Positions 2,055 through 26,907 of a DNA stretch of 36,920 nucleotides are shown here, in pieces. Positions within the stretch are counted from its first letter, which is position 1. Each line of letters begins with the position of its first letter. The notes beneath the pieces were generated by a model. It worked only from the letters and a program-made list of their open reading frames with translations, did not search any database and was not told the origin of the DNA. Both the position numbers and the translations under genes were made by a program. The stretch is taken from contig CAXBPH010000038.1 in the NCBI GenBank assembly GCA_963977445.1, positions 1-36,920 on the forward strand, read 5' to 3'. This stretch comes from an uncultured bacterium. GTDB lineage: Bacteria; Hydrogenedentota; Hydrogenedentia; Hydrogenedentales; JAEUWI01.

Positions 2055-2241
2055 TTATCCACATGCATTTTTACCTGTCTGATTTTAGATCGGGTGTTGA
2101 ATATATTTTCAGTTACTAAAATATAAACAATTCATAATAAACGACTTATACAATCAAAATAACACCAGTAACACCCAACACACTTTTATCCTGGCGTAAA
2201 TTAGATTGGATAAAAAGCAGGTTATCAACAAGTTATCCACA
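2055..2241. promoter_or_regulatory. DnaA-box cluster downstream of dnaN
   Basis: TTATCCACA at 2055-2063 and 2233-2241; TTATCAACA at 2222-2230; AT-rich non-coding context. Confidence 0.75.
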
Positions 2242-2291
2242 CCCCCCGATACGCGCATATATATCCACTTACCACTACATATTGGGCTAAC

Positions 2292-2322
2292 AAAAAAGGG
2301 AGTATCTGAACCAGATACTCCC
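2292..2322 (-). terminator. Rho-independent terminator of dnaN
   Basis: 11-bp stem GGGAGTATCTG/CAGATACTCCC (2298-2322) followed by T6 on the minus strand, ~30 bp after the dnaN stop. Confidence 0.85.
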
Positions 2323-2354
2323 GATAGTCACGGTTTGATTCCCCCAAGGGGCAA

Positions 2355-3461
2355 TTAGATTCGAATCGGCATAACCACGTTGATGTATAGATCATCCGGG
2401 GCTTCGCTGCGTGGTTTAATGATTCCCGGGCTCATGGCATCTTTCACCACCAGGACAACCTGCTCGGTCTGAATGCGACGCAATACGTCGAGCACGAAAT
2501 CGGGGTTGAAGGCAATCTCAACCACTTCCCCATCGTACTCGATAGGAAGTTCTTCTTCGTATTCGCCAACTTCGGGCGTTACGACCTTCAGGGTCATCAC
2601 CCCATCGCCAAATCCAAAGCGAACGGAGTTGAACTTGTCGTTGGTCATGGTCCGGGTACGGCGTACGGCTTCGGTAAAGCGCTCGGTGTTCACCAGAACC
2701 TCTTTATCGTGTTTTGCCGGTATAACCATGTTGTAGTTCGGGAAGGTACCTTCAATGAGCGCAGAGACCATCCTGAGGTTGTTAAACACGAAGGCTATCT
2801 GACTCTCGTCGAGATAAACGAGCACAGGCTCTTCATCGTCCAACAAACGCTCCAGCTCATGAATCATCTTCGATGGAATGATGATCTTCGCTTCCTTGTC
2901 CGCTGGAATGCCTTCCGTCTGCCGATTGAGGGACATTCGACGTCCGTCGGTAGCCACGACCGTCAGCTTACCTTCCAGAATCTCAAACAAGAGGCCCGTC
3001 AGGTTGTAGCGTGCCTGGTCGTTGCAGATTGCGAAGGAAGACCGCAGGAAGAGGGTTTTCAGCGTAGCCTGGGTGAAGGTGAGGGGTTCTATGCCCTCAA
3101 AGCTCCGAATAGGCGGAAATTCATCGGGAGACATGCTGAAGAGTTTGGTGTCGATTCGACCGCATGTGATATCGATGATATTGTTGTCGGTCAAATTGAG
3201 CGTAATGTCTTCATTGGGCATTTCAGCCAGCATGGAGGACAGACGCTGCGACGAGATGGTCATGGCACCGGGACTGTCCACGGTGCAATCTACCGTGCAC
3301 TCGATACTGACCTTCAGATCGGTTGCGGCAAGTTTAACGCAGGCCTCGCCGGTTTCCATCAGAATATGGGAAAGAATGGGCAGCGCCGATTTTGACGATA
3401 CGATACTCTTGACCTTGTTCACCGCATCTAAGAGGTCTTGTCTGGGAATGGTTATCTTCAT
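2355..3461 (-). CDS. dnaN: DNA polymerase III beta sliding clamp
   Basis: LPILSHIL, ATDL, VATDGRRM, EGTFPNY, IAFNPDFVLDVL and C-terminal VVMPIRI. Start at the second ATG (3461), which follows GGAG. Confidence 0.98.
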   Translation of the reverse strand: MKITIPRQDLLDAVNKVKSIVSSKSALPILSHILMETGEACVKLAATDLKVSIECTVDCTVDSPGAMTISSQRLSSMLAEMPNEDITLNLTDNNIIDITCGRIDTKLFSMSPDEFPPIRSFEGIEPLTFTQATLKTLFLRSSFAICNDQARYNLTGLLFEILEGKLTVVATDGRRMSLNRQTEGIPADKEAKIIIPSKMIHELERLLDDEEPVLVYLDESQIAFVFNNLRMVSALIEGTFPNYNMVIPAKHDKEVLVNTERFTEAVRRTRTMTNDKFNSVRFGFGDGVMTLKVVTPEVGEYEEELPIEYDGEVVEIAFNPDFVLDVLRRIQTEQVVLVVKDAMSPGIIKPRSEAPDDLYINVVMPIRI

Positions 3462-3482
3462 GTTGTTCTCCATGGCCTTTTA

Positions 3483-4074
3483 TGTGGATAAGCGATGCTT
3501 ATTATATATTATTGAATATATAGATAAAACAAGTCATAGTCTTAATAGGGGACGGGATAGGGTTAGAAACGTAGTTAAACCGCCTTATATCAACAACTTA
3601 ACCTGTTGATAAAAAGGTGGATAACCACCAGGTTTATCCACTGTCGTCCACAATTTTCATCCTGACCCGATTAATGGGTGTGAATTCAAACATAAAATTG
3701 TGGAAAACCGACAGGATTATCCCACGTTTATCCGGATCTTATCCACATTCCAATTGGTGGTAACTGTTCCACGGAGTTGCGGATTTATCCACAGCACGAT
3801 TTTCGAGTAAAAACGGGCGAAAACACTACCTATACGCAGGTTATTCACCGACCGTGGAACGCTCCCATTCTTCCAACTCACCGATTAGTACGCATCCATC
3901 TTAAAAAAGTTAAGTTGTTTAGTTTCAACTACTTAGATTCCGGCAAATGTACCACCTAAAATAAGCCGACGTTTTCCTAACTCTAGGAAAATCAATACCT
4001 TGGGTCCTGTCAGATGTCAAATGGAGGGATCCTTCCGGACCCCTCCAAGAGGAGTTATTAACAAGTTATCCACA
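3483..4074. other. Probable chromosomal replication origin (oriC)
   Basis: Consensus TTWTNCACA boxes at 3483 (rev), 3699 (rev), 3739, 3785, 4066; near-consensus boxes at 3604, 3616, 3634, 3841, 4055. AT-rich tract ~3499-3547. IHF consensus WATCAANNNNTTR at 3588-3600 and 3990-4002. Lies directly upstream of dnaN. Confidence 0.85.
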
Positions 4075-4151
4075 GGCATATAGCAATTTTTTGCTTATTT
4101 TGACGCCATATGGACCATATCCGCCTAAGAACCGGGTCTTCAGGTTCTTAA

Positions 4152-6125
4152 TCAGGTGCGGATTACGCGCAAGAACTCTTCTGGATTAACAACGCCATTT
4201 TTAACCTTCTGGCGACAGCGCATCGCCATGGTCTTCAGTTTTGCGGCCTTCATAATCTGATCCGCTCCGGCTTCGTCGTTAATCAGCTTCCGGATAGGCT
4301 CTGTAATCTCCAGAATTTCAAAAATTCCGGTACGGCCATGGTTGCCGGTCTGGTAGCACGCATCACAACCCTTACCCCGATACAGCTTCTTTGTTGTTGC
4401 CGGTAAACCGAGGGATTTCAAAAGGGACGCCTGGGGTTTGAAGGTCGTGCGACACTCGTTACAAATCGTCCGCACCAGTCGCTGACCAATAATGGCGGTC
4501 AATGCGCTGGAAATCAGATAGGCCGGCACATCCATGTTCCGCAAGGTACTGATTGCTTCGGGCGCATCATTGGTGTGGAGGGTGCTGAAGACCAGGTGAC
4601 CGGTCATGGCCGCACGTACGGCAATCCGGGCCGTTTCTGAGTCCCGAATTTCACCCACCAGCAGCACGTCGATATCCTGACGAAGGGCCGCACGGAGGGT
4701 ATTTGCGAAGGTGAGGTCGATATCGTTATCGATCTGTACCTGGTTGATCCCGGACAACTGATATTCAACTGGGTCTTCCAAGGTAACAATACTGTCGGTC
4801 ATGACGTTTTTCTGGTTCAACGCCGCATAGAGACTCGTTGTTTTGCCACTGCCGGTAGGTCCAGTGACCAGAATCATGCCGTAGGGCTCTTCAATGATAC
4901 TCATGAACTGTTTTTCGTCGTCCTCTTCGAGGCCGAGTTCCCGTATACCGGACAGGACCGAACTTTGATCGAGGAGCCGCATGACCACACGCTCCCCGAG
5001 ATAGGTAGGAAGGGTGGCAACACGGACATCAAACTCCTGATCACCCACCTCCATGCTGATATGGCCGTCCTGGGGATGGCGCGTGTCGGTAATATCCAGC
5101 TCAGAGATAATTTTAATACGGGAAACCACGGCGGCTTCCAGTTCCTCCGGGATGCTCATGATGTCATGGAGGACACCATCGATTCGATAGCGCACCCGCA
5201 TCTCAGGTTCCTGGGGATCAAGATGGATATCGGTGGCACCGGAATTCACGGCACCTTCGATAATGGTGGTCACCATCTGAATGACTGAGCTACCTGAAGC
5301 GGCCCGAGCTATATTCTCAAAACGGGCCATTTCGCGCACTTCCTCTACTTCATATTCTTCCTCGCTACTCACGTTATTGATCTCCCTAACCTTTGATACT
5401 TCAGCCACTTCAGACAATTCTTCCGTACCGGATAACGTCACCACTTTGCGTGTGGGCCGTGACCTTTCCGTCGTACTAGCACCCACAACCGCTATTTTCT
5501 TGTAGCGTTTTGTAAGTTCTACGTTGAAATCGGAACAGGCCGTAATATTTGCATGAATTCGCTTCCCAAGCAGGGTAGCGGCCCCATCCAATCGCCCGAG
5601 GGCCTGGGGACTTGTTATGAGGACTTCCAGCCTGTCGCCAAAGAGGCTGATGGGGATAAATTCATTTTTCTTGGCGATACTCTCGGGTATGGCTTCCAGT
5701 GCATCCTTTTCACTGGGGGTTTTATCCAGCGCAACATAGGGCAGGTCATGCTGGTCACTGAAGGCGTGGGCGATATCGACCCGCGTCGCGTAACCCATGT
5801 CCAGCAGGAGACTGCCCAGCAGCCGACCTTTCCGCTTTTGCACCGCGAGCACTTCTTCCAACTGTTTGTTCGTAATAACCCCCATCTGAACGAGGGTATC
5901 ACCTAAATTGGTATCTACAGAACGTGTTGATTTTGAGTGAAACTCATAGCGAAGCACGTCTTCAATGGCGCTGAACGAGACATTGTGTTTTTTGACCAGC
6001 AATTTATACCAAGGCGTTCCGGAATCAGCTTCCGCATCTTTGGCTTGCTGCAGTTCGTCCTGCGTAATGAGATCCTGCTTGACCAGATTTTCGCCCAGGC
6101 TGATGTTTCGCTTGCGCGCAGACAT
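4152..6125 (-). CDS. PilB/GspE-family assembly ATPase with N-terminal MshEN-like repeats
   Basis: ATDIHLDP, RYRIDG, Walker A GPTGSGKT, TLEDPVE, LRQD...GEIRD, TGHLVFSTLHTN, Zn-binding CNEC/CDAC. LGxxLVxxGxI repeats at the N-terminus; GGAGG RBS. Confidence 0.95.
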   Translation of the reverse strand: MSARKRNISLGENLVKQDLITQDELQQAKDAEADSGTPWYKLLVKKHNVSFSAIEDVLRYEFHSKSTRSVDTNLGDTLVQMGVITNKQLEEVLAVQKRKGRLLGSLLLDMGYATRVDIAHAFSDQHDLPYVALDKTPSEKDALEAIPESIAKKNEFIPISLFGDRLEVLITSPQALGRLDGAATLLGKRIHANITACSDFNVELTKRYKKIAVVGASTTERSRPTRKVVTLSGTEELSEVAEVSKVREINNVSSEEEYEVEEVREMARFENIARAASGSSVIQMVTTIIEGAVNSGATDIHLDPQEPEMRVRYRIDGVLHDIMSIPEELEAAVVSRIKIISELDITDTRHPQDGHISMEVGDQEFDVRVATLPTYLGERVVMRLLDQSSVLSGIRELGLEEDDEKQFMSIIEEPYGMILVTGPTGSGKTTSLYAALNQKNVMTDSIVTLEDPVEYQLSGINQVQIDNDIDLTFANTLRAALRQDIDVLLVGEIRDSETARIAVRAAMTGHLVFSTLHTNDAPEAISTLRNMDVPAYLISSALTAIIGQRLVRTICNECRTTFKPQASLLKSLGLPATTKKLYRGKGCDACYQTGNHGRTGIFEILEITEPIRKLINDEAGADQIMKAAKLKTMAMRCRQKVKNGVVNPEEFLRVIRT

Positions 6126-6378
6126 CTAAAATTATCCTCCCTCGGCTAACTTGTGAACGGCAGAGGCCATTATAGAAGTAACGTGAATGGATCGCAAAGT
6201 GTGATATTCGCGCAACGAACAGGCTGACCACCGTTCAGACAATGTCCAACATCATCGGCGATTTTAGCGCTATTTGCAAGAACTTTTATTGGGAATCCCC
6301 TTGGCCTTGGTGCCAATAAGACGGTATTATCGAGCTTGGTAATGACGACACGGCTGGTTCACCGCCGAACAAAGGAGC

Positions 6379-7563
6379 ATGATGAATACGCACGAAACAC
6401 CGGAGACGACAGCTTCCCCGACACCACAGCAGCCCCCTGTAAATTACGTTCAACTGGCCGTATCCCTATTGGCCATCGCTTTAATAGTCACCAATGTAAT
6501 CACGTGGCTCTACTATAAAGACGCGCTGAAACAACCGGGATCCACCGAAATTAGGGGTGAGACTCTTGCCATAAAGGCACCGCCAGCGGTCACCACGGCC
6601 AACGGGTCCCCCATTGACCTGACCACACGAAACTTCGACTTTCCTATCACCAATGCCCACGATCATCTTTACAAGCTGCAACATCTCGATAAGTATATGA
6701 AGGCGGCAAAAAAATTCGGTATTGATCGAACCATTTTTGTGGCCAGTTCTGAGTTTACCTTTCTCGGCACCAAAGGCGATCCGAAAAAACTCAATGACTG
6801 GAGCACCCGGGAAATACTAACGGCCGCGAAAAAATATCCCGGGAAGATTATCCCTTTTGCTACCCTCCACCCCGATGACCCGGACAAAGTCGCCCTGCTG
6901 AAAAGTTATGTGGCCGACGGCGTTATGGGGCTGAAACTCTATACGGGCCATAGTAATTTTCATGACCGCTCCCTCGATGTACCCGAGATGGATCCCGTCT
7001 ACGCCTATTGCGCAGAAACTCAACTGCCCGTGTTGTGGCATGTAAACATGGCGAAATACACGAAGGAACTCTTCACCGTCCTCGATAGGTATCCCACGAT
7101 GAAGGTGATCATTCCCCACTATGGCGTTGGCTTCTGGCGGCCCGAGGGCAACGTCATGGGTGACGTGGAAAAAATGCTGGATACCTATCCCAACGTCTAC
7201 GTGGACAGCAGCTTTGGCACGCGGGAGATTCTCGTGGGTGGATTGGAAAAGGTGAGCGCCCACCTGGAGGTATTCAAAGACTTTTACGCGAAGTACCAGG
7301 ACCGGATTGTATGGGGCACCGACATGGTGGTCACGGGAAATTCGGAAAAAACGGAACCGTGGGTGGAATCCGTGATCCGCGCCTGTCGCGACGTCCACGA
7401 AAAAGACACCTATGTTTTCTGGATGGCGGCCCAGGGCTCCAAGTACGCGTATGGCAATGGCAGCAATACCTACGGCGTGTTGCGGGGCCTGAATCTGTCC
7501 GACGAAATTCTGGAAAAGGTCTACAAGACCAATATGGACCGCCTGCTGGGTATAGGAAAGTAG
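6379..7563 (+). CDS. Membrane-anchored amidohydrolase (TIM barrel, Amidohydro_2-like)
   Basis: N-terminal TM helix, NAHDH metal motif, GLKLY, LPVLWH, IIPHYG, NVYVD, IVWGTD; AAGGAG RBS. Confidence 0.85.
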   Translation: MMNTHETPETTASPTPQQPPVNYVQLAVSLLAIALIVTNVITWLYYKDALKQPGSTEIRGETLAIKAPPAVTTANGSPIDLTTRNFDFPITNAHDHLYKLQHLDKYMKAAKKFGIDRTIFVASSEFTFLGTKGDPKKLNDWSTREILTAAKKYPGKIIPFATLHPDDPDKVALLKSYVADGVMGLKLYTGHSNFHDRSLDVPEMDPVYAYCAETQLPVLWHVNMAKYTKELFTVLDRYPTMKVIIPHYGVGFWRPEGNVMGDVEKMLDTYPNVYVDSSFGTREILVGGLEKVSAHLEVFKDFYAKYQDRIVWGTDMVVTGNSEKTEPWVESVIRACRDVHEKDTYVFWMAAQGSKYAYGNGSNTYGVLRGLNLSDEILEKVYKTNMDRLLGIGK

Positions 7564-14509: not shown

Positions 14510-14788
14510 ATGATCGACAGCATCAAACACAAAGGACTCCGGCGGCTCTACGAACGGGGTGATTCCAGTAAGATCAATCCGATTCACGTAGATAAGGTAG
14601 CGCTGATTCTGGCGGACCTTGATGCTGCAGATTCCATTGATCACATGCGTCAGCCCGGCTATCGCTTGCATGAACTGCGTGGAAATCTTCGTGGTTATCA
14701 TGCCGTCGAGGTCTCTGGAAACTGGCGCATCGTCTTCCGCTTTAGTGCGGGAAAAGCCTTCGATATTGACCTTGTGGATTACCACTGA
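14510..14788 (+). CDS. higB: HigB-like (RelE/ParE superfamily) toxin
   Basis: MIDSIKHKGLRRLYE...PGYRLHELRG...VSGNWRIVFRF...DLVDYH; precedes an HTH antitoxin. Confidence 0.93.
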   Translation: MIDSIKHKGLRRLYERGDSSKINPIHVDKVALILADLDAADSIDHMRQPGYRLHELRGNLRGYHAVEVSGNWRIVFRFSAGKAFDIDLVDYH

Positions 14789-14802
14789 AAGGTTTACCAA
14801 CC

Positions 14803-15084
14803 ATGCCCATGATGAACCCACCCCACCCCGGCAAACATGTTCGGATGAATTGCATCGAACCGCTGGGACTCACCGTCTCGGATGCTGCCAAGGCACTGGG
14901 TGTCGCTCGGCAGACGTTAAACAACCTGCTCAATGGAAAATCCGGAATTTCAGCCGAAATGTCGCTCCGCCTGGAAAAGATGGGATGGGGACAGGCCGAT
15001 GGCTGGCTGCGCCTACAGTCGAACTACGATTTGAGCCAGGCCCGGAAAAGGGAAGAGCATATCGTGGTGCATCCCGTGTCGTAA
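14803..15084 (+). CDS. higA: HigA antitoxin (XRE HTH)
   Basis: PPHPG...LTVSDAAKALGVARQTLNNLLNGKSGISAEMSLRL...WLRLQSNYDL. Confidence 0.93.
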   Translation: MPMMNPPHPGKHVRMNCIEPLGLTVSDAAKALGVARQTLNNLLNGKSGISAEMSLRLEKMGWGQADGWLRLQSNYDLSQARKREEHIVVHPVS

Positions 15085-15179
15085 AGGCACGAAACGTCCC
15101 TTCTGGTGGTTCAAGCCTTCCAAGAGGGCCTTCCGCCGCACCAGTCCCAACGTTCACCGTGGCCAGCCACCACCCCCCA

Positions 15180-16877
15180 CTACATTCGTTCGGGAGCCTC
15201 GATGCCGAGGATGCCCAGGGCGTTCTTCAGGGTCTGGAGGGTGGCTTTGCAAATCTGCAGGCGGGCCACCATGAGCTCGGGAGTCTTGGCCTTCAACACG
15301 GGGCAATCGTTGTAGAAACTCGAGAAGAGTCGCGACAGCTCCAGGGTGTAGTTGGCAATGGGGGCACAGGTCCGTTGTTTGAGGGCACCGGCCACGATGT
15401 TGGGGAAGTCGGCGATTTTGGTGAGCAAGGCCCATTCGGTGTCGGAGGTGGTGTTGAATTTCTTCGCCGGGACGTTGGGGATGTCTCCGTCAATTTTACG
15501 AATCATGGAATTGATCCGGGCGCAGGAATATTGGATGTAGGGGCCCGTGTCGCCCACGAACTTCATGTTTTCTTCCATGTCGAAGATGACGTTCTTATTG
15601 GGCGTGACGCGGAGGATGCTGAAACGGATAGCCGCGACGGCTACCTGCTCGGCGATAACCTGTTGCTCTTTCTTCGAAAGGTCGGTGCACTGCTCCGCGA
15701 CCCGTTCCTGGGCCAGGGTGGCGGCCTCATCGAGGAAGTCAGACAGCAACACGACCTTGCCCTGGCGGGTGGACATTTTGCCGTCTTTCAGCAGGATGTA
15801 GGAGTAGTAAATAGGCTCTGGTACGGGATGACCCGCTGCCGCGAGGATAAGATTGAGCTGCTGGGCATAGAGTTTGTGGTCTTCGCCCAATACCATCATG
15901 TTGATGTCGGCACCGAGAGCCTGCTTGTCGAGGGTGTAGGCCAAATCGCGAAAGCCATACATGGAGCTGCCGTTACCCCGGAGGAGAACGAAATACCGTC
16001 CTTCTTCCAGATTGTGGCCGATCTTGGAGAGGTCCACCACGAGGCGCTTGTCGTCATCGATGAAGACAGCGTCTTTTTCCTTGAGTTTTTCGACCAGTTC
16101 GTCAAGACGGGCGTCTTTCACATACTTCGACTCGTGATCGAAGACGTCATAGGTGCCACCGAGGCGGGTGAGCACTTCCAGTTGCCCCTTGAGGCAGAGG
16201 TCGGTGACGGCCGTAAAGCGTTTCTGGGTTTCCGGATCGCCCTGCTCCATCTTCGCCAGGAGGTCATAGCCAGCCTGGGCAAAGGCTTCGTCCGTCTTGG
16301 CCCGCTCATTGGCTTCCACATAGGCGTCGAGGATCTGGTCAAAAGCCAGATCCTCCAATTCGTCCGCAATCATCACGAGCAAGCCGATTTGCCGGCCCAT
16401 GTCGTTCACGTAGTAGTGCACCTCCACCTCGTAATCTTCAAAGCGGAAGAGGCGGGCGAGACTGTCGCCGATCATGGCATTTCGCGCACGGCCCACGTGG
16501 GGGCTGGCGTTGGGGTTGATGCTTGTGTGTTCCAGGACCACCTTGGTACCCGTTCCCGAATGGGCGGATCCGAATTTTTCCCCGGCTTCCAGGACCCCGC
16601 CTACGATCTGCCGTGCAATGGCACCGCGATTGAGGAAGAGGTTGAGATAGGGCCCCATGGGCTTGGCTTCGGTGACCTCGGGGCCAAAATCGACCCGTTT
16701 CGCGGCGTCGGCAGCCAATTTCGGAGGGGCAGCCTTGAGTTTTTTGGCGGCCAGAAACATGGGAATGGCGACATCGCCCATTTCCAGCTTGGGCGGGGCA
16801 CCAAAAGAGATGTCGTCGGCATCCAGCTCGGGAAAGGCGGCCAATATGGGGTCTACAAGGCTTTCAAACGGATTCAC
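15180..16877 (-). CDS. argS: Arginine--tRNA ligase
   Basis: EHTSINPN...PHVGR, YYVNDMGRQ, KMSTRQG, GDTGPYIQYSCAR, FYNDCPVL, LGILGIEAPERM. GTG start at 16877 after AAGGA. Confidence 0.96.
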   Translation of the reverse strand: MNPFESLVDPILAAFPELDADDISFGAPPKLEMGDVAIPMFLAAKKLKAAPPKLAADAAKRVDFGPEVTEAKPMGPYLNLFLNRGAIARQIVGGVLEAGEKFGSAHSGTGTKVVLEHTSINPNASPHVGRARNAMIGDSLARLFRFEDYEVEVHYYVNDMGRQIGLLVMIADELEDLAFDQILDAYVEANERAKTDEAFAQAGYDLLAKMEQGDPETQKRFTAVTDLCLKGQLEVLTRLGGTYDVFDHESKYVKDARLDELVEKLKEKDAVFIDDDKRLVVDLSKIGHNLEEGRYFVLLRGNGSSMYGFRDLAYTLDKQALGADINMMVLGEDHKLYAQQLNLILAAAGHPVPEPIYYSYILLKDGKMSTRQGKVVLLSDFLDEAATLAQERVAEQCTDLSKKEQQVIAEQVAVAAIRFSILRVTPNKNVIFDMEENMKFVGDTGPYIQYSCARINSMIRKIDGDIPNVPAKKFNTTSDTEWALLTKIADFPNIVAGALKQRTCAPIANYTLELSRLFSSFYNDCPVLKAKTPELMVARLQICKATLQTLKNALGILGIEAPERM

Positions 16878-17071
16878 AGGGATATTCCTTATGGGCATTC
16901 GGGGGTGGTGGGTTTGAGGCACTTATTATACCGTATCTATTATGCACACAACCAGAGACGGAACCGTAGGAAATCTGGGGCGCTTTAATGGGCCCGATGG
17001 TGTAGGATAACCCTTCCCCATGGGGTATGGGGATGGCAGTACCAATTTACCCAAAATCAGGAGAAGGCATC

Positions 17072-18574
17072 GTGGATCGACGTTCATTTTTAAAAACCGG
17101 GGGCCAGGCGGTCGTGGCCGGAAGTGTAGCCAGTGGTTTTTCGCCCGCCGCATCGGGTGTGGAAGTGGTTTCGACCCCCTCGGAAGGGGACTCCCTCCTG
17201 GGGGATTACACGGCAGAAGACCACCGCAAGCGTCTGGAAAATATTGCCCGATGCACCCGCGCCATCCGCTCCTCCATGCGGGAACACTTCGTTACCGATT
17301 ACCGTCCGGGACAGTGCTGCTACAACCTGGGCGAGTACCCGAGCACCAAACCGTGGGTGGTCGACGAATACGACGCCCAGGAACTGGACCGCCTCCGGGA
17401 TGAAGGCATCCAGGTGATCCAGGTTTTCGACGACTGGAACGACTCCCTCCGGCTTTTCGGTGGCGACAAGTATTCCGCCGTGAACCCGTCGGGCTACCAC
17501 AAGTTCATCGAGCTGGCCCATGCCCGGGGCATGAAAGTCCTTACCTATACCTCCACGTGCTTCATCCAGCGTAGTGATCCCGATTTTAAGCAGGAATGGA
17601 GCCGGGAGGGCGACTTCCTCCAGGTGGGCTATTGGGACATGGCCCGCTGTTCGCCGGCGAGCCCCGGCTGGCGGGCCTTTGTGATGCAGAAATTCGCCCG
17701 CATCATGGAAGAATATGGCACAGACGGGATCTACGTCGACGGGGGCTATTTGTCCAACCAGCACGCCTACAAGGGCACCATGCCCGTCGCACCCGATGAA
17801 ATTGTGGCCTTTGACGAGACGGCCGAGCACGATGGGGCCTTCACGGACATGCTCGCTCTGATCTACGCCGATGTGAAGCGACGGGGCGGCATCCTGAAGT
17901 TGCACGTGAACGCCGCGGAGAAGCCCCAGTCCCGGGGGCTCGATACCTACGATTACCTCTGGGTCGGTGAAGGGGTGAAGGAGGCCGATACCCTCCGGGA
18001 AACCGTCAAGAACTACGAGCCCTACCTCGTGCCCTGTCTGGACATGGGATTTACCAGCCTGGAATCGGAAAACGAGCCCTATTTACATTCCATCCCCTAT
18101 CTCCAGTTTCCCGTGTCCATGGGTGGCCGCATCTTCACCGGCGAACGGGGTTTCGTGCCCGGTATAACCTACAAAGACGATTTCTGGATGACCCGGTGTC
18201 GTGATGCCTGGAAACAATACCAGGAGGACCCGACCAAGCTGCATACCTATAGCGCCTGGGACGAAGTGCCCGGTAGTCCCAAGACGCGTGAGACCCATGC
18301 CCGGTGGCTGAAGCAGTATTTGCCCCTGGTGGAAGAAGGTACGAAAGCGTGGCTGGAAATCGGCGATTCAGACTTATTTGCCGCGCCCCTGCCTGCGGGG
18401 GTTGTGGCGTCGGCTTTCGCCAATCGCGAGCTTCACCTGGTGCTGGCCAATTACAGCCGTGAGGCCGTTGAGATCGCGACGACCACGTCCTATGTGGCGA
18501 CGGGGGAAACCGACGCAACTACAAGCTGGACCCTGCCCCCCCGTTCATTGCGAATTTTGAAGCACACGGCATAG
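17072..18574 (+). CDS. Tat-exported putative glycoside hydrolase-like TIM-barrel protein
   Basis: GTG start after AGGAG giving DRRSFLK Tat motif. FIELAHARGMKVLTY, CSPASPGWR and YGTDGIYVDG are typical of GH-like barrels; family not assignable by eye. Confidence 0.7.
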   Translation: MDRRSFLKTGGQAVVAGSVASGFSPAASGVEVVSTPSEGDSLLGDYTAEDHRKRLENIARCTRAIRSSMREHFVTDYRPGQCCYNLGEYPSTKPWVVDEYDAQELDRLRDEGIQVIQVFDDWNDSLRLFGGDKYSAVNPSGYHKFIELAHARGMKVLTYTSTCFIQRSDPDFKQEWSREGDFLQVGYWDMARCSPASPGWRAFVMQKFARIMEEYGTDGIYVDGGYLSNQHAYKGTMPVAPDEIVAFDETAEHDGAFTDMLALIYADVKRRGGILKLHVNAAEKPQSRGLDTYDYLWVGEGVKEADTLRETVKNYEPYLVPCLDMGFTSLESENEPYLHSIPYLQFPVSMGGRIFTGERGFVPGITYKDDFWMTRCRDAWKQYQEDPTKLHTYSAWDEVPGSPKTRETHARWLKQYLPLVEEGTKAWLEIGDSDLFAAPLPAGVVASAFANRELHLVLANYSREAVEIATTTSYVATGETDATTSWTLPPRSLRILKHTA

Positions 18575-19438: not shown

Positions 19439-19981
19439 TTATTCTGCTTTTGATTCGGCGGCGGGTGCCTTGCCCCCACCGTGGCGCTCTTCCTGGACCC
19501 GTTGATCCAATTCCTGCTCATATTCGTCGGCGTCGGAAATGTACCGGCTCTCGACGACGATCAAGTGGAAACCATAGCTTGTCTGGATAATGTCGCTGAG
19601 CTCGCCGATGGGGGCACTCCAGACAAACTTCTCGTAGTTTTCCTCGAAGGTACCCCGTCGTTGGGGGGGAATATATCCACCTTGGGAACCACTACCCGGA
19701 TCGTCGGAATATTGACGGGCCAGACTTTCAAAATTCTCCCCATCCACGACGCGCTGACGAATCTCCTGGATCAGTTTCAGCGCCCGGGATCGATCTGCGG
19801 GATCGGCCTTATTGAAGCCGATGAGGATGTGCTTCGAGGCCACTTCCGAATTGGTCGGTCGCAGATCGCCTTGAAAGGCGATAATGGCCAGCATCAAGAC
19901 AAAAATGGAGATTACGCCAATCCAGATGTGTTTGGTGTAGTCTTTTGGTTCTTCCGGTGTGACGTCGTTGTCCAGGGACAT
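19439..19981 (-). CDS. Membrane-anchored parvulin-type peptidyl-prolyl isomerase
   Basis: ASKHILI, FESLARQYSDDPGSGSQGG, IIQTSYGFHLI; one N-terminal TM; AAGGAGG RBS. Confidence 0.92.
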   Translation of the reverse strand: MSLDNDVTPEEPKDYTKHIWIGVISIFVLMLAIIAFQGDLRPTNSEVASKHILIGFNKADPADRSRALKLIQEIRQRVVDGENFESLARQYSDDPGSGSQGGYIPPQRRGTFEENYEKFVWSAPIGELSDIIQTSYGFHLIVVESRYISDADEYEQELDQRVQEERHGGGKAPAAESKAE

Positions 19982-20122: not shown

Positions 20123-21151
20123 TCAGGGCATGATACTGTCGAGCATTTTGTAGTACTGCGAAAAATAGGATATGACAATGTAGCCGACGAGCCCACCCAT
20201 GGCGAGGCCGATCAGCGTACTCATGACCTTGGTCGCAATGCCCATGGCATGCTGACCTTCTTCCAAATGGTATTGGGCAACTTTTTGTAAGGACGCTTCC
20301 AGATTACCGGAGCGCTCCCCCACTTCCAGCATTTCGCGGGCCATGGGGCTGAGACTGCGGCAGGGCGCAAAGGCCTCCACGAGGGTGGCCCCTTCGCCTA
20401 CCCGGGGGATGGCCGTCAGGAGATCGCGCTCCATGCGGGCATTGCCCGAGATGGCGGCGGCATTGCCGATGCAGGATTTGATGTTCATCCCACTGCCCAC
20501 CAACAAGGCGAAGCTGCGGAAGAATCGGGCCAGGCTGAATTTCTTGTTGACCACGTTCAGGGGCCAGACGTAACTGATGAGGGTACCGAACCCAAAGCGA
20601 AGCACACCCAGCCGGGAGAGGATGAACAGGGTGAGGAGTATGGCGGCCAGGACCAACATGGAAATGCCCTGAAAACGAAAATAGCCGTCAAAATACTCGC
20701 CCAAATCAAAGGGTTTTCTCGAGTCCAGATTGATACTACCGATGAGGCCCAGCGCAAAGGTGCCGAGAAACCAGGCGGCGGTGAGTTGAATCATGGGATA
20801 CACCATGGAGCCCACAATTTTTCGCTGCATGCTGAGGCGATCTTCATAATAATCGGCCAGATCGCGGAGCATGATATCGAGACGTCCGCCCAATTCACCG
20901 GAATGGAGCAACTCGATGAAGAAGCGCGGCAGGTATTTCTGCTGCTTCCGGGCCGCGTCGCTCAGGGTGGACCCATTTCGCGCATCGGCGGCCATATCGC
21001 GGAAGACCTGCTTGGCCCGGCTCTCCCTGGAATTCTCTGACATGAGCTCCAGGGTGCGCACGATGGGCAGGCCCGCATCATAGCTGGTGGCCATCTGACG
21101 GCACAGGGGGACCAATTGCTTGGCCGAAATTTCGCTTGTCATCAAACCCAT
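20123..21151 (-). CDS. PilC/GspF-family inner-membrane platform protein
   Basis: RQMATSYDAGLP, GELGGRLD, SMVYP, ARFFRSFALLVGSG, GERSGNLE; two T2SSF repeats. Confidence 0.93.
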   Translation of the reverse strand: MGLMTSEISAKQLVPLCRQMATSYDAGLPIVRTLELMSENSRESRAKQVFRDMAADARNGSTLSDAARKQQKYLPRFFIELLHSGELGGRLDIMLRDLADYYEDRLSMQRKIVGSMVYPMIQLTAAWFLGTFALGLIGSINLDSRKPFDLGEYFDGYFRFQGISMLVLAAILLTLFILSRLGVLRFGFGTLISYVWPLNVVNKKFSLARFFRSFALLVGSGMNIKSCIGNAAAISGNARMERDLLTAIPRVGEGATLVEAFAPCRSLSPMAREMLEVGERSGNLEASLQKVAQYHLEEGQHAMGIATKVMSTLIGLAMGGLVGYIVISYFSQYYKMLDSIMP

Positions 21152-21488
21152 GGCGCTACCAGGTTCTCCACTGCCTTACCTATACCGACACGGGTAACAC
21201 CCGACGGATCCGGTTCATAGAATTCGCATTGTAGCAAAATCCGGGAAATTGTCAAAACTCGGTGTTCCATGGCGCAATGGAGCAGATAGGGGGATCCCGT
21301 GCCCACAGGGATGGCGGGGCTTCAAATTGACCCAAAGGTGCCCGGCATAAACCCACGGGCAAGTCTCGCGGACTTGTCCGTGCCACCCCGACGTGGTTGA
21401 TGAGGCCCTGGGTGCTTCCTGGTGGACTTGGGGTCAATCACGTGGCACAGACGGTGGTGTGCCAACAAGATTGACTTGGTACACCCTG

Positions 21489-21646
21489 CGTGCCGCGCGA
21501 TCCTGTACTCAGGTTCGTGCGTGTGGATGCAACGGTGACGCTTACGTTCGGTTATGTTGGGTGTGAGCACGATCAGCCCCCAAACTACCGGGAGCTCTGC
21601 GTGGTTTACCCGCACACGAACCGACGTTGTCGGATCGCGTGGCACG
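21489..21646. repeat. Second REPIN-like pair of the CGTGCC hairpin family
   Basis: CGTGCCGCGCGATCCTGTACTCAGGTTCGTGCG (21489-21521) and a diverged inverted copy at 21613-21646; truncated copy at 21868-21883. Confidence 0.75.
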
Positions 21647-21700
21647 GTACATGGGGCTGCTCCACGAAGAACCTATCCACAAGAATTTATGGTCTACAGT

Positions 21701-21784
21701 GTCCTTCCCGCGAACGCGGGAATCCAGAGGGTATTCTCGGTTTTTGTGTTCGCGTTTCTGGATCCCCGCGTTCGCGAGGATGAC
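21701..21784. repeat. dRS3/RPE-like palindromic element
   Basis: GTCCTTCCCGCGAACGCGGGAATCCAG (21701-21727) inverted against CTGGATCCCCGCGTTCGCGAGGATGAC (21758-21784). Confidence 0.8.
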
Positions 21785-21904
21785 GGCCTTCGGACCTTTT
21801 TCATACGCTTGCTCCCGTTGGAGTAAATCGACCGCCCCATGTTGCCCCAACTTGGTCTGGTAGTCTTGCACACGAACCGACGTGCCATCCGTACGAATCT
21901 ATAG

Positions 21905-21936
21905 AAAAAGGCCCCCGATCCGTATCGGGGGCCTTT
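21905..21936 (-). terminator. Rho-independent terminator of the thioester-protein gene
   Basis: AAAGGCCCCCGAT/ATCGGGGGCCTTT stem with a T tract on the minus strand, ~20 bp after the stop. Confidence 0.85.
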
Positions 21937-21954
21937 GTCGGTGACTTTCTGTGT

Positions 21955-24900
21955 CTAATTCACTTCCAGGGTCACCGGGGCCGAGGCGGCTTCCATTTCG
22001 GTGTTGTAGTAGGCATAAACCCGGGACGGGGGCGTTTGGGCCTTCAGGGGGAACTTGGCCCGGAGGCCGTAGCTGAAGTTCAGGGTCGCATTGCCCATAA
22101 TCTCCTCGAAGTAGAGGATGATCTGTCGTCCCGCCACGTCGTAGCGGCTGATTTGACCGTCCGTGACCAGTTTATCGAGGTCGCCACGCTCCACCTGGAA
22201 GCCCGGCGGCACCCCGAGGTCGACGATGGTCATTTCGGTCTGAGCGGGCAGGTTGTTCTTCACCGTGACCGAGGCCGTCACGAGGTCATTCACGGCGAGT
22301 TTGGTCTTGTCATAGGCCACGTCGATGCTGAAGGGCGCGGCCTGGGGCTTCCGACCTGTCCAAGGCGTATAGTGGCGTCCCACCACCTGGTAGAGCATGC
22401 TGCCTTCGCCACTGAACTCAATGCGGACCCGGTTGGCTCCGAGCCGCGTAAGGTCGCCAGCGTCTACGAGACGCATGACATCGGCGTTGTCTTCGGTGAC
22501 CTGGAACTCGCTCACCACGGCGTCATTGACCAGAACCCGAACGGTGGCGTTCACCGCTTTGGTCTGGTGTTGGAGCGACAAGGTGAGGGCCTTCAGGGCG
22601 AGGATGGTGGATTGGGTAGAACCCCAGTGTCCGCTCGCTTCTTTTTTCTGGATGAGCCAGGTAAGGGCCTCCGTCGTGGTGTCCGCGTATTTTCCTGCTT
22701 TCATGAAGGCGATGGCTGTGAGGGCCGTGGCCTCCACATCGGCGGCATCTCCGTGGGTGAAGGTCACGGTGGCCGTTCCCTTCCAGTGGGTGATCTTGTC
22801 TTCGCTGACCTTCATGCCATGGAGCTTTTCCAAGACGCTCCGTGTGGTGCCATCGTCAGCATCCCACGAAACCAGGGCATTGGCGACCAGGGCGAGGGTG
22901 TAGGCGTCTTCGGCCTTCTGCCAATGCTGCTTGAGGTATTGCATGGCCCGGTCGATACTCGGGTCGGTCTTGCCGCTGGTGAGGAGGGCGTCGGCGATGT
23001 AGGCCGTTACGAGCACGTCGCTACCCTGGATGTTGCCCCAGGATTCGGCATGGAGATAGTTGGCGTCTGGTTTCCAACTGCCATCCGACGCCTGTTGTTC
23101 CAAGAGCCAGGCATGGGTCCGGCGCATGACATCGGGGTCCACTTCATGGACCCTGGCCATGTCGTAGAATTCCTTGAGTCCATAGGCCGTCAGGATTTTG
23201 TTGGCCGGGGCTTCCCCAAACCAGGAAAAGCCACCGCCGTCTACCTCATAGGTGAGGAGACGTTGATACCCGGCACTGATGAACCCTTCGGCCTTCAACT
23301 GGAGTTCGGGGTTTATCTGTTCCGTGTCTTTCATATATTGAACGATGAGTATGTTGGGATAGGTGGTCGAACTGGTCTGTTCGAAGCAACCCGAAGGCAT
23401 CTGAAGCATGCTGTCGAGGCCGTCCACAATCTGGCTGAAGACACCGGGATACACCCGTACGAGGATCTTCTGTGCGCCTGCCACACTGTTGTCGGGGATG
23501 GTGATGGTGTGGTCGACGGTGGCCGAAAGACGATCACTCACGCTGACTTCCACCTTTTCGCCGTCGGGGGCCACTTCGACGTCACGGCGGATGGCGTCTT
23601 CCATGGTCTTACCATGGGCGAAGACAGTGAGCTTGTGGTGGCCCAGTTCCTTCACCGTGATGGGGAAGTACAGGGCACGTACTTCACCGGCACCAAGACG
23701 AACCGTAACTTCACTATCGCCGTCCAGGGTGAACCAATCTTCGGTCTCGAATACAAGGCGAACCTCCTGGGCGTCGTCGAGGTAGTTGTAGAGCACCACG
23801 GGGATAGACACCTGGTCATTCTGGGTAAGGAAGACGGGCAGATCGAGGTCTACGAAGAATTCCTGGAAGACCCGGAGAGGCGTTTCGGTGCTGCCCAAAG
23901 CGCCGGACGCATTGGATGCCATGGTCGTCATGCGCCAGGTGGTAATGCTGTCGGCGAGGCCCACGGCCATGGTGGCCTGTCCCTGACCATCGGTAATGAG
24001 GGCGGGCTCAAAAAGGAGGGTCTCGGGGAAGTACTCCCGGATGCGTACCGGCCCGACGCTTTCGGACGGGTCGTCGTTTTCCTTCAATTCCATCACAACG
24101 GCACGGGCAGCTCCATCCGCCATGACCATGGGTGCCGCCATGGCTGCTTCCGGCATGGCAAGTTCCTGCTCCCCTTTGAAAAGCTTTCTCACACCGCGAT
24201 TACGGATACCGCCACCGAAGCCCCCGGCACGGCGCCCGACAAGCTCGGGGGAATCGGGGGAAATATCGTCCGCCGTATTCTCGATACCATCGGGGCCTTT
24301 GGAGTGCATCTGGAACCAGCCCCCGGTGTTTTCCACCTGATCCAGGTCGAAGAGATAGCGGTTGCCCCAGGGATCTTCCAGATCCCGTGCGGATATAAAC
24401 TTGCGACGGAGCAGGGTGTCCATCATGTCGCCCGGTGCCTTCCAGTTATTTTTTTCGAGGTAGCGCACGATAACTTTGGCGATACGCTCGTAGTCCTGGC
24501 CGATTCGTTCGGCCAGGGCCGTCTCGGAGGCGGCGCGCTTTGCGGTGAAACTGTTCTGGTGGATAGGCGGTGCCGGGGGTGTTTCGGCGGAGGCCAGCAA
24601 TACCCTGGCCGCCTCCTGCTGACGATCATCCCAACGCATGGGTCGGGGCTGGGGCTCCACGGGATCGGTAATCAGGGTGTCGAGGTGGTACCCGTGAATT
24701 TCATAGCGGGGCTTCATGATCTCCTGTTCCAGGGTGAAGAAAACCTTCTCCAGACCGGGGTGGAGCTCCTGCAAGGCAAATACGCTCTCGTCCACGATGG
24801 AAATGCCCAAGGCCGCTGCCGTGGGCCGACCCTGCTTGTCGGTGACCGCGAAATTCAGCAGGGCCTCTTCCCCGGGACGGTAGGTGTCGTGATCCATGGA

Positions 24901-26856
24901 AATGGTGAGCTGCAGCTGGTCCGCCGGGTTGATATAGAGCAACCGGGCATCGCGGATGAGATCGGTGGTTGGGGACAAAATGTAGGCATGGAGGACCACA
25001 CTGCCCATCAGGCCGGGGTCCAGATCCATATCCAGGGTGGCCCGGCCCATGGTCAGGGTGGCGCTGCGGGTCATGACGGTCTGGCCTTCGCGCACCAGGT
25101 CGAAATAGACATTGCCCCGCTGTTTGGTGGAAATGACTTCGGCATGGAGCCCTTCCCCAGCGGCGTAGAGGGTCTTGTCCGTGCGGATAAGGAGGGCATG
25201 TTCTCCTGTCGTGGAGGAAAGGGTCGCATTGTGGTTCAGGGTATGGCCTTGCGGGTCTTTCACATGAAGGGAGAGGGTTGTCTCGCCGGCCTTGGGGGTG
25301 AAGCGGAGGGTGCCCACGCCCAGGGCATCGGTTTTCACTTCGACGGTGGTATCGAGCCGATCGCTGGCCACGGAAACAACGGCACCATCCACCGGGCTAC
25401 CGTCGGGGCGTGCCACGAGCAAGTAAACGTCGTTTTCCACGCCGGGAGCGAGGTTTCCCCCTTCCGCGATGGCGTGGACCTGTATGTCGGAGGCGGCCAC
25501 CGATTTCATGACGCTTTTCAGCTCGATGTGATCCGCCGTGTCGGTAACTTCCACTTCGAGTCGCACGGAGGCCTGGCCCTGCTCCAACTCGGTGCCTACG
25601 AAATGATCCGGCAGGGGCAGGCTGAAGGACCAGTGACCATTCTCATCCAGGGTGCCATTTAATTCGCTGAAGGTATCGAAATTGACCACAAACGAAGAGG
25701 CCTTAATCGTGACGGAGCCGCCCGCTACGGGTTTCCCAAAGAAATAGTCGGATTGAATCTCCCCCGTTAACGTGTCGCCCGGACGGTAGAAATTTCGGTC
25801 GGTTGTGACGTCAATTTCGAACTTCGGGAGCACGTAGCGGTCCACCGTGACGACTTTTTCGCTCTGGTCATCGCCGAGGATGGCGCGGACTGTGTAGGTG
25901 CCGAGATTGACCTCGGTGGCGAGCTGGAAGCGCGCCGAGGCGATACCGAAGGTGTCGGTGTTGCCCGTTTCCTTGAAGACCTTGTTGCCCTTTCCATCCA
26001 TGACCTCCATGGTGAGGGTCTGGTCTGCTGCGGGCTTGAGACTGCCCGCATCGAGGGACAGGGTTCGCATCTCTATATACTGGCCGGGCTGGTACTGGGG
26101 CTTGTCCGTGCTGAGGAGTATTTTGTTCTTGTTCTTTACCGAGACGGGCTGTTCCAAGTAGTCATCGCCATAGCCCGTAGCGGCGAGTCGGATTTCCAGC
26201 ACGCAATTGCCGTGGTATTTGGGTGACACTTCAAAGGCCGCCTCCAGACTGCCATCCTCATTGGTCTTACCCTGATAGAGGGGGTAGCGATCCGTATCGT
26301 TGACCAGCGTTAACTCGGCATCGGCTCCGGCGACGGGTGCCCCCGTGGCGTGGTTACGTGCCACGAGTTGAACGGCGGCCGTGCTGCCCACGAGCATGTC
26401 GGGGAAGCCCACGAGGCGAGTTTCCAACTGGGGCAGGGTGTCTATGACGAGAAATCCACCCTGCTCCTGGTCATTGCCCGCACCCAGGGTGTATTGGATG
26501 ACGCTGTCGGCATAGTGCTCCGGTCGCAGGAGTCCCCCCAGGGGCAACACAATGGTATTCTCCCCCGGTTCCAGCCGGACCCGCTGAGAGGCCGCGACCC
26601 GATCCTGCCCGGCCAGACTGCGGACCGAAACCTTGAAGAGCTCGTTGGACGTAACGTTTCGGGGGTTGGTAATGACCGCATGGGCCACCAACTCTCCCTG
26701 ATCCGGTCGCAATTCGAAGCGACTCCGGTCTACCCGGGTGGCGGATTCATTTTCCTGGGCAAGGACGGGTGTCAGGTCCCATTGAGCCACCTGGCTCCCC
26801 ATCAACGCGAGCAACAATGCCACGCCTATCCAAACATGTCTATGATCGACTTTCAT
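21955..26856 (-). CDS. Secreted alpha-2-macroglobulin/complement-like thioester protein
   Basis: STDKPQYQPGQ, YVLPKF, VDESV, REYFPET, DSITTW, thioester GCFEQ (23377-23391), GYQRLLTY, STQSTILAL, YAYY. Sec-type signal; start ATG 26856 after GGAGG. Confidence 0.95.
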   Translation of the reverse strand: MKVDHRHVWIGVALLLALMGSQVAQWDLTPVLAQENESATRVDRSRFELRPDQGELVAHAVITNPRNVTSNELFKVSVRSLAGQDRVAASQRVRLEPGENTIVLPLGGLLRPEHYADSVIQYTLGAGNDQEQGGFLVIDTLPQLETRLVGFPDMLVGSTAAVQLVARNHATGAPVAGADAELTLVNDTDRYPLYQGKTNEDGSLEAAFEVSPKYHGNCVLEIRLAATGYGDDYLEQPVSVKNKNKILLSTDKPQYQPGQYIEMRTLSLDAGSLKPAADQTLTMEVMDGKGNKVFKETGNTDTFGIASARFQLATEVNLGTYTVRAILGDDQSEKVVTVDRYVLPKFEIDVTTDRNFYRPGDTLTGEIQSDYFFGKPVAGGSVTIKASSFVVNFDTFSELNGTLDENGHWSFSLPLPDHFVGTELEQGQASVRLEVEVTDTADHIELKSVMKSVAASDIQVHAIAEGGNLAPGVENDVYLLVARPDGSPVDGAVVSVASDRLDTTVEVKTDALGVGTLRFTPKAGETTLSLHVKDPQGHTLNHNATLSSTTGEHALLIRTDKTLYAAGEGLHAEVISTKQRGNVYFDLVREGQTVMTRSATLTMGRATLDMDLDPGLMGSVVLHAYILSPTTDLIRDARLLYINPADQLQLTISMDHDTYRPGEEALLNFAVTDKQGRPTAAALGISIVDESVFALQELHPGLEKVFFTLEQEIMKPRYEIHGYHLDTLITDPVEPQPRPMRWDDRQQEAARVLLASAETPPAPPIHQNSFTAKRAASETALAERIGQDYERIAKVIVRYLEKNNWKAPGDMMDTLLRRKFISARDLEDPWGNRYLFDLDQVENTGGWFQMHSKGPDGIENTADDISPDSPELVGRRAGGFGGGIRNRGVRKLFKGEQELAMPEAAMAAPMVMADGAARAVVMELKENDDPSESVGPVRIREYFPETLLFEPALITDGQGQATMAVGLADSITTWRMTTMASNASGALGSTETPLRVFQEFFVDLDLPVFLTQNDQVSIPVVLYNYLDDAQEVRLVFETEDWFTLDGDSEVTVRLGAGEVRALYFPITVKELGHHKLTVFAHGKTMEDAIRRDVEVAPDGEKVEVSVSDRLSATVDHTITIPDNSVAGAQKILVRVYPGVFSQIVDGLDSMLQMPSGCFEQTSSTTYPNILIVQYMKDTEQINPELQLKAEGFISAGYQRLLTYEVDGGGFSWFGEAPANKILTAYGLKEFYDMARVHEVDPDVMRRTHAWLLEQQASDGSWKPDANYLHAESWGNIQGSDVLVTAYIADALLTSGKTDPSIDRAMQYLKQHWQKAEDAYTLALVANALVSWDADDGTTRSVLEKLHGMKVSEDKITHWKGTATVTFTHGDAADVEATALTAIAFMKAGKYADTTTEALTWLIQKKEASGHWGSTQSTILALKALTLSLQHQTKAVNATVRVLVNDAVVSEFQVTEDNADVMRLVDAGDLTRLGANRVRIEFSGEGSMLYQVVGRHYTPWTGRKPQAAPFSIDVAYDKTKLAVNDLVTASVTVKNNLPAQTEMTIVDLGVPPGFQVERGDLDKLVTDGQISRYDVAGRQIILYFEEIMGNATLNFSYGLRAKFPLKAQTPPSRVYAYYNTEMEAASAPVTLEVN

Positions 26857-26907
26857 ACTCTTGCCTCCGTGAGCGGCGTAGCGCTCGTTAATCACATGCT
26901 ATTGGTG

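Follow-up and report, generated by a model that had tools for sequence, protein, structure and literature searches.

Thioester proteins of the alpha-2-macroglobulin (A2M) family are usually described with one of two things at a single point in MG6, an unstructured bait in the inhibitors or an anaphylatoxin (ANA) domain in complement. In the account of Harwood et al. (PMC9352918), A2M is triggered when the cut bait's C-terminal end, alpha'NT, retracts from a channel made up of MG2, MG3, the MG2-MG3 linker and the first helix of LNK. The same account describes the A2M residues R732 and F735 as partly conserved across the superfamily, and human A2M as functional with an all-Gly/Ser bait. Here, we describe a bacterial member of this superfamily in which the MG6 point holds a domain homologous to the soluble head of GspG, the major pseudopilin of type II secretion systems (T2SS), followed by a disordered linker that we propose to be the bait. 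The gene lies in a 36,920-nucleotide stretch of DNA (hereafter the window) from an uncultured bacterium of the Hydrogenedentota (GenBank assembly GCA_963977445.1, contig CAXBPH010000038.1).

An A2M-type thioester protein with a probable Sec signal peptide

The following features, all on the minus strand, define the protein outside its bait region.

21955..26895, minus strand: A2M/TEP-family thioester protein, a 1646-residue open reading frame (ORF) from GTG
26758..26856, minus strand: putative Sec signal peptide, residues 14-46, read from the sequence
25819..25836, minus strand: YVLPKF, residues 354-359, a hydrophobic stretch at the MG2-MG3 junction and the proposed roof of the alpha'NT channel
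23377..23391, minus strand: thioester motif GCFEQ, residues 1169-1173

The database copy of the protein (P0002) has 1633 residues and starts at M14, and the ATG at 26856 that encodes this methionine is likely the true start. The N-terminal 46 residues are free of cysteine and hence of a lipobox. The Pfam families MG2, MG3, MG4, A2M_BRD (residues 569-708), A2M (959-1047), TED_complement (1154-1438) and A2M_recep (1552-1636) all matched above their cut-offs. Of 121 family proteins, 120 have the motif CFEQ, and the one without it is a 1033-residue partial sequence; wherever a family member has a thioester motif, it is CFEQ. Animal A2M and C3 use CGEQ and the Escherichia coli protein ECAM uses CLEQ.

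By sequence, the nearest solved proteins are human A2ML1 (E 3e-71), CD109 (1.2e-70) and A2M (1.1e-69). By contrast, the match to E. coli YfhM/ECAM is weak (E 3e-9) and covers residues 968-1282 only, approximately 315 residues. An AlphaFold2 (AF2) model of residues 447-1646 (1200 residues) had a mean pLDDT of 80, and a Foldseek search with this model was led by A2ML1, CD109 and A2Moo (E 3e-54 and weaker), with enterobacterial A2M at ranks 41-47. NCBIfam holds no family for the protein or for the insert described below. The chain of domains, the CxEQ motif and the channel and plug elements described below place the protein in the alpha-2-macroglobulin/thioester superfamily.

The insert in MG6 contains a GspG-type pseudopilin head

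Between the two halves of MG6 lies an insert of 242 residues (709-950; 24046-24771, minus strand). It is bordered on its N-terminal side by VDESVFAL (residues 701-708; 24772-24795) and on its C-terminal side by RIREYFPET (951-959; 24019-24045), and it contains DLEDPWGNRYLF (838-849; 24349-24384) and FQMHSKGPDGIENTADDI (861-878; 24262-24315). A model's earlier interpretation of the same DNA, made from the letters alone (the sequence-only reading), had placed these four motifs correctly; it had set the insert at 24047..24700, the right place in slightly too narrow bounds. The segments are listed below with their conservation, expressed as mean pairwise identity over 1500 random pairs from 120 sequences.

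Residues 681-708, minus strand: MG6a flank; identity 62.4%
24676..24771, minus strand: LNK-like first helix and next segment, residues 709-740; identity 70.3%, the highest in the insert
24625..24675, minus strand: variable loop, residues 741-757; identity 23.9%, many gaps
24580..24624, minus strand: second conserved helix (..AARVLLASA..), residues 758-772; identity 61.9%; a helix in both models
24241..24573, minus strand: GspG-type pseudopilin head, residues ~775-885, without the alpha1N helix and without a prepilin site
24364..24375, minus strand: DPWG turn, residues 841-844; D and W invariant, P and G nearly so (32 sequences)
24262..24303, minus strand: predicted calcium-binding loop SKGPDGIENTADDI, residues 865-878
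24058..24240, minus strand: disordered Gly/Ala/Met/Pro/Arg-rich linker, proposed bait, residues 886-946
24019..24057, minus strand: alpha'NT-like plug VGPVRIREYFPET, residues 947-959, with R953 and F956
Residues 951-980, minus strand: MG6b flank; identity 64.8%

A total of 135 database proteins share the conserved insert at E <= 1e-3. Of 60 representatives picked at <62% identity, 31 were combined with the window copy into an alignment of 32 diverse inserts (A1). Searches with the single sequence gave weak scores. Pfam T2SSG (PF08334) matched the whole protein at E 0.034 (14.6 bits) and the domain alone at E 9e-4 (19.7 bits), below the cut-off of 21; phmmer with the single insert against the PDB reached a best E of only 0.2; and a PF08334 scan of the organism's own genome matched three other places and not the trap insert. 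The A1 profile, by comparison, picked out 8 distinct chains of GspG, PulG, EpsG or XcpT from the PDB, with E from 9e-7 to 2.3e-3 and coverage of profile positions 92-183; five weaker, unrelated rows followed (E 0.009-0.57). Individually, 21 of the 32 A1 members matched PF08334 at E <= 0.01, the best at 4.7e-8. Furthermore, hhalign paired A1 with the genome's own 131-residue GspG (contig C212) over template residues 26-128, with a probability of 96.3% and E 1.5e-9. Thus, of the T2SSG comparison that the sequence-only reading had proposed as a check, the window copy by itself stayed under the threshold and the family profile was significant.

Structural comparison gave a similar picture. In the AF2 model of the insert, slice residues 91-180 have block-mean pLDDT of 91-98, with one long and two short helices plus two strands. 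VIA-align placed GspG of enterohaemorrhagic E. coli (3g20_A) first (Z 8.8, root-mean-square deviation 2.6 A, 97 of 114 residues aligned), and its top 8 rows are major pseudopilins throughout. The ten best Foldseek matches to the whole 263-residue model are likewise pseudopilins, led by 3g20_A with a probability of 0.99 and E 1.4e-2, and nothing reached E <= 0.001. Because low-confidence flanks dilute the Foldseek score, we relied on VIA-align and the sequence profiles; the suggested structural check therefore returned the expected fold family at the top of the list with Foldseek E-values that were weak. The profile, hhalign and model matches establish that the domain is homologous to the entire soluble head of GspG and does not merely share the DPWG and GPDG motifs. 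ANATO, the Pfam anaphylatoxin family, gave no match to the insert at E <= 10, and the fold matches are pseudopilins instead.

The match to the genome's GspG begins at residue 26, and the hydrophobic alpha1N helix, the leader and the prepilin-peptidase site have accordingly been lost from the head. The prepilin motif [GAS][FMYW][TS][LMFI][IVLTM]E was not found in any frame of the window. Ordinary pseudopilins are encoded elsewhere in the genome, one of them beside a 408-residue gspF in a gspF-gspG cluster.

Calcium-ligand residues are conserved in the head

According to a 2026 preprint, D117, T/S122 and D125 of OutG and PulG, and possibly D124 as well, bind calcium through their side chains, alongside two backbone carbonyls (PMC13081927). 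In an alignment to PulG, D869, T874, D876 and D877 of the window protein correspond to D117, S/T122, D124 and D125. A1 shows no variation at G867, D869, D876 and D877, and conservation of >=90% at S865 and T874; across the family, the pattern DxW...GxD...DD is kept in 118 of 121 proteins. The residues that would bind calcium are thus retained. PulG lacking calcium is reported to be disordered and to be degraded in vivo (PMC13081927), which makes it plausible by analogy that the head, too, depends on calcium.

These data bear on whether the head does anything at all. It could be an evolutionary passenger, captured once and serving as an inert spacer that lengthens the bait region. A2M is described as tolerating a wholly artificial bait (PMC9352918), and the content of the bait region in this family is plastic: tandem heads and an added CarboxypepD_reg domain occur, and the calcium-loop pattern is absent from the full-length homologues P0102 and P0110. 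Against this, the DPWG turn and all of the calcium ligands are invariant or nearly so across many phyla. This invariance argues for purifying selection on a folded, calcium-binding domain, and we regard an inert passenger as unlikely.

Trigger elements and linker are consistent with a plug-in-channel trap

Residues R953, F956, P957, E958 and T959 at the C-terminal border of the insert are invariant in all 32 A1 sequences, and from a motif alignment R953 and F956 would be the counterparts of A2M R732 and F735. All 61 sequences compared have YVLPK at the MG2-MG3 junction, and YVLPKF is probably equivalent to F224-V225-L226 of A2M as that segment is described in PMC9352918. In an alignment with complement C5, the first helix of the insert pairs with the beginning of LNK and RIREYFPET with IRSYFPESWLW. 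Together, these two pairings put the head at the exact site of ANA in C3 and C5. The A1 profile search of the PDB, hhalign and the C5 alignment therefore bear out the proposal of the sequence-only reading that a GspG-like module sits in the bait or ANA position of a thioester protein.

Between the head and the plug lies the least conserved part of the insert (residues 879-950 as tabulated; mean pairwise identity 20.8%, flanks 62-70%), which has a length of 46-209 residues across the family. Compared to the whole proteins, the linker is rich in Gly (14.1 vs 7.3%), Ala (17.4 vs 9.8%), Met (7.0 vs 2.1%) and Pro (8.0 vs 4.8%). Met is thus enriched 3.3-fold, and by more than 2-fold in 82 of the 101 proteins with a linker of <= 110 residues. 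In the 1200-residue model, residues 889-946 have block-mean pLDDT of 25-39 and lie between two ordered neighbours. The Gly/Ala/Met-rich, bait-like linker that had been noticed in the raw sequence is thus real, variable and predicted to be disordered, and we propose that this segment, directly before alpha'NT, is the actual bait. A semi-conserved A-x-P-M-A motif and the Met/Ala/Pro-rich composition of the linker persist across phyla.

In light of the invariant R953 and F956, the invariant YVLPK and the conserved LNK helix, we read the protein as a canonical plug-in-channel trap with the disordered linker as its bait. In such a trap, the LNK helix would form the floor of the channel, and the second conserved helix and a strand would sit buried among the MG domains. 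The head, a calcium-site domain probably derived from a GspG-type pseudopilin's soluble head, minus the membrane helix and prepilin site, would come next, then a fast-evolving Gly/Ala/Met/Pro/Arg-rich loop of ~60 disordered residues acting as bait, and finally the alpha'NT plug with R953 and F956, threading back to MG6. Cleavage of the loop by a protease would free the plug, the channel would collapse, the thioester would become exposed and the protease would be bound covalently. We picture the head as a rigid, calcium-stabilised anchor: docked on the MG ring, it would fasten the bait at its N-terminal end and keep the loop exposed to solvent.

Since the head occupies the position that ANA has in C3 and C5 (PMC9352918), it could instead be released like an anaphylatoxin, by cuts in residues 741-757 and in the linker, and act as a signal or effector. 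The head is indeed flanked by two poorly conserved stretches. However, no conserved processing site was seen in residues 741-757, and the MG ring is predicted to bury the helix and strand ahead of the head, which would hold the head on the N-terminal fragment. Release of this kind seems to us extremely unlikely.

The head is predicted to dock on the MG ring

A predicted complex between residues 36-745 and residues 755-888 had an ipSAE of 0.79, and the best of 3 controls had 0.00. Of 157 solved complexes, 116 reached that mark, as did 2 of 215 mismatched pairs; these reference counts are only rough because our own alignments were used. Three runs agreed in >=97% of contacts, with a partner pLDDT of >=77. 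Contacts were predicted for 43 partner residues. The 15 in the head proper are at the start of alpha1C, in PWGN (842-845) and in PDG (868-870); the other 28 lie before residue 785, in the second helix and the strand ahead of the head, and contact the N-terminal MG region (residues 57-165), residues 474-654 and residues 725-745.

The predicted orientation is relevant to a further possibility, that the head is an exosite or lure that recruits T2SS-exported proteases to the bait, whether of foreign origin or made by the cell itself and active too early, in the periplasm. The head lies directly N-terminal to the bait, and a variable loop of the major pseudopilin is described as governing secretion specificity, possibly through contacts with substrates (PMC13081927). 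Moreover, non-core positions of the head vary widely, as a recognition surface might (mean pairwise identity 32.5% over residues 775-878). Yet the most conserved residues of the head are those of the fold and the calcium site, with no surface patch identified, and the calcium loop and DPWG turn are predicted to face the body of the protein and not the solvent. We consider such a lure quite unlikely. Its more specific version, a calcium-dependent exosite that would draw T2SS-exported proteases onto the bait by way of the pseudopilin surfaces they must recognise, is decidedly unlikely; it would make the head a device for recognition as well as an anchor. If a lure were correct, the trap would target a route of secretion and not a class of protease, and the insertion would be an independent bacterial parallel to that of ANA in complement, at the same site.

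Our preferred interpretation, to which we assign a probability of roughly 55%, is that the window encodes a secreted, probably monomeric A2M-type thioester protease trap with a plug-in-channel trigger, in which the head is a docked, ANA-like and calcium-stabilised anchor for the bait. On this best reading, the head is neither a pilus subunit nor a pilus-docking device. Several points weigh against the anchored trap. Thioester formation, protease trapping and calcium binding are predictions from the sequence. Because A2M works with an all-Gly/Ser bait (PMC9352918), the trigger should be able to do without a folded domain, and an anchored trap offers no account of what one would add. Most of the predicted contacts (28 of 43) fall ahead of the head; an LNK segment in the MG ring is common to the solved A2M-family structures, so these pre-head contacts may pass by likeness and not be specific to the head, and the predicted contacts of the head itself are new but few. 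Full-length homologues lacking the calcium-loop pattern (P0102 and P0110, above) would make the head dispensable in some lineages. Finally, the biased composition of the linker and its A-x-P-M-A motif suggest a constraint beyond that on any cleavable loop, which an anchored bait leaves unexplained.

The trap gene is not linked to pilus genes

The sequence-only reading had also suggested that the module links the thioester trap to a T2SS or type IV pilus, on the grounds that pilC is the next gene downstream and a pilB homologue is in the window. Both genes are indeed present. Downstream of the trap gene, the first real gene is a T2SSF (pilC/gspF-like) gene at 20123-21151 on the minus strand; it has the same orientation, and an 803-bp spacer lies between the two. 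A T2SSE (pilB/gspE-like) gene lies at 4152-6125 on the minus strand, 16 kb from the trap gene. A head that docks the trap onto the T2SS pseudopilus or a type IV pilus, or acts with those machines, would fit this proximity. It would also fit the true GspG ancestry of the head and the presence of canonical pseudopilins and a gspF-gspG cluster elsewhere in the genome.

The neighbourhoods of related genes argue against such a role. Across 80 related loci, each with at most 10 kb of flanking DNA, tblastn with the window's PilC found a match in 1 of 80 and with its PilB in 2 of 80. In four loci from the same genus (L002, L004, L084 and L085; 7.9-14.9 kb downstream), neither PilC nor the peptidyl-prolyl isomerase (PPIase) encoded beside it in the window was found (0 of 4). 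No conserved operon partner emerged: once the A2M gene itself is set aside (ORF clustering placed it in 79 of 80 loci), the leading cluster was a generic ABC ATPase in 6 of 80, and the upstream Opp transporter genes are syntenic only in the two closest loci.

The spacer between the two genes (21152-21954) carries several elements that separate them, the first of which is listed here.

21905..21933, minus strand: intrinsic-terminator-like hairpin and T-run, 21 nt past the stop codon of the trap gene

The hairpin has a folding free energy of -26.5 kcal/mol (z -5.3), and 0 of 200 shuffles folded as well; it was found by reading the spacer and confirmed by folding, and a consensus terminator scan did not list it. 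The spacer also holds a dispersed repeat (~21701-21787) of ~87-130 bp, for which 53 matches were scored, spread over many contigs of the genome, and pilC has its own sigma-70-like promoter site, TTGACA-16-TACAAT. Translation of the repeat yields the '..LDSRVRG.D..' of spurious ORFs such as the one at 21542-21871 in the window and a 408-residue ORF of another related locus (L081).

The head also lacks the alpha1N helix, as its match to GspG from residue 26 onwards implies, and no prepilin-type motif was found in any frame of the window. The alpha1N helix is what drives filament assembly. With PilC and PilB so rarely nearby, a terminator, a repeat and a promoter between trap gene and pilC, and no alpha1N, the sequence-only reading's connection of the trap with a T2SS or type IV pilus is not supported, and docking onto such a machine is in our view very unlikely. 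Its other suggestion, a decoy for pilin-directed proteases or phages, is conjectural.

Other features of the window were as follows. The T2SSF gene encodes only 342 residues, beginning at about position 56-75 of GspF/PilC models of 401-419 positions, and stands alone with the PPIase gene (19439-19981); the window contains no pilin gene. The T2SSE product is a PilB/GspE-type ATPase with an MshEN/c-di-GMP-binding N-terminal domain, and its gene adjoins dnaN (2355-3473, also minus strand). Two ORFs on the plus strand, at 14619-16988 (789 residues) and 17027-18574 (515 residues), match no Pfam family, and the latter is 75% identical to an ORF in the same-genus locus L004. GC content is 45-52% in positions 1-7000 and 52-65% in 7001-36920.

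Distribution and variants

A pattern scan of one genome per species (185,579 species genomes) yielded 520 candidate loci, from more than 10 phyla, and 80 of them were kept. These 80 match through at least query residue 179 and therefore include the head. Their record titles assign them to Hydrogenedentota, Omnitrophota, Planctomycetota, Armatimonadota, WOR-3, Acidobacteriota, Verrucomicrobiota, KSB3/Moduliflexota, Poribacteria and further groups. Within the phylum of the window, the gene is present in 20 of 135 genomes (17 of 86 high-quality ones), with best matches in single copy, and in its genus in 7 of 8 other genomes. Searched against 1.84 billion cluster representatives, A1 matched 3777 proteins at E <= 1e-3; tightening the limit to 1e-10 left 896, and to 1e-30 left 179, the last number counting clusters at 50% identity. 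The survey of homologues that had been proposed thus found the architecture recurring, and the linkage to pilC and pilB did not recur with it.

Several proteins (1768-2106 residues) have 4-5 matched stretches, which indicates tandem heads. Acidobacterial-type members have a CarboxypepD_reg domain added after the head. Variants are listed for the homologues P0103, P0106 and P0109 and the representatives P0122, P0141, P0230, P0261 and P0266. In P0245 (4137 residues), the calcium-loop part of the profile matched 25 times, and this one is probably another sort of protein. The label PF08334 is already attached to some database entries, and the fragment P0036 is named GspG, a kind of annotation that the GspG origin of the head accounts for.

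We found no description of a pseudopilin head in an A2M-type trap in the literature within reach, to which subscription journals and bioRxiv supplements did not belong. A term search of a 2026 review of A2M (PMC12939704) returned no 'pilin', 'pseudopilin' or 'type II secretion'. The layout is widespread, mostly in uncultured phyla, and apparently undescribed.

Comparison with known systems

The enterobacterial A2M proteins (ECAM/YfhM and Salmonella A2M; PDB 5a42, 4ziq, 4rtd and 4u48) share the thioester MG-domain fold with the window protein. They are far from it by sequence (E 3e-9, vs 3e-71 to A2ML1), and the window protein has no lipoprotein cysteine. ECAM is a lipoprotein, often paired with PBP1C.

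GspG, PulG, EpsG and XcpT (PF08334; PDB 3g20, 1t92, 5o2y, 3fu1, 3gn9, 4lw9 and 2kep) share with the head alpha1C, the DPWG turn, the beta-strands and a C-terminal calcium loop with all of its side-chain ligands. Unlike these pseudopilins, the head is internal to a 1646-residue protein, has no leader, prepilin-peptidase site or alpha1N, and is encoded outside any gsp operon. It represents a pilin head reused outside any filament.

In complement C3, C4 and C5, a small folded domain likewise lies between LNK and alpha'NT, at the same point of MG6 (PMC9352918). The fold of the window head is unrelated to ANA, there is no furin-type site ahead of it, and it is followed by ~60 disordered residues and not by a single convertase site. 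The insert would put a folded domain at the ANA site for a second time and independently. To the unstructured bait of the inhibitors and the ANA domain of complement, it would add a third type of module, a pseudopilin-derived calcium-site domain followed by a bait. The family may therefore serve as a natural experiment in what a bait-region domain can hold while still arming a plug-in-channel trigger.

Compared to the metazoan A2M family, the window protein is bacterial, with a probable Sec-type signal peptide, a folded domain of pseudopilin origin and CFEQ at the thioester. Its insert of 242 residues exceeds the bait-region domain of ~66-126 residues given in the review PMC12939704. In other respects, the monomeric and tetrameric metazoan inhibitors, human A2ML1, CD109 and A2M (PDB 7q1y, 8s3o and 6tav), are its closest counterparts: they are its best matches in sequence and fold, follow the same domain order including the thioester domain (TED) and the receptor-binding domain MG8, and share with it the arginine and phenylalanine of alpha'NT, the LNK helix, the MG2-MG3 linker and a disordered bait ahead of alpha'NT.

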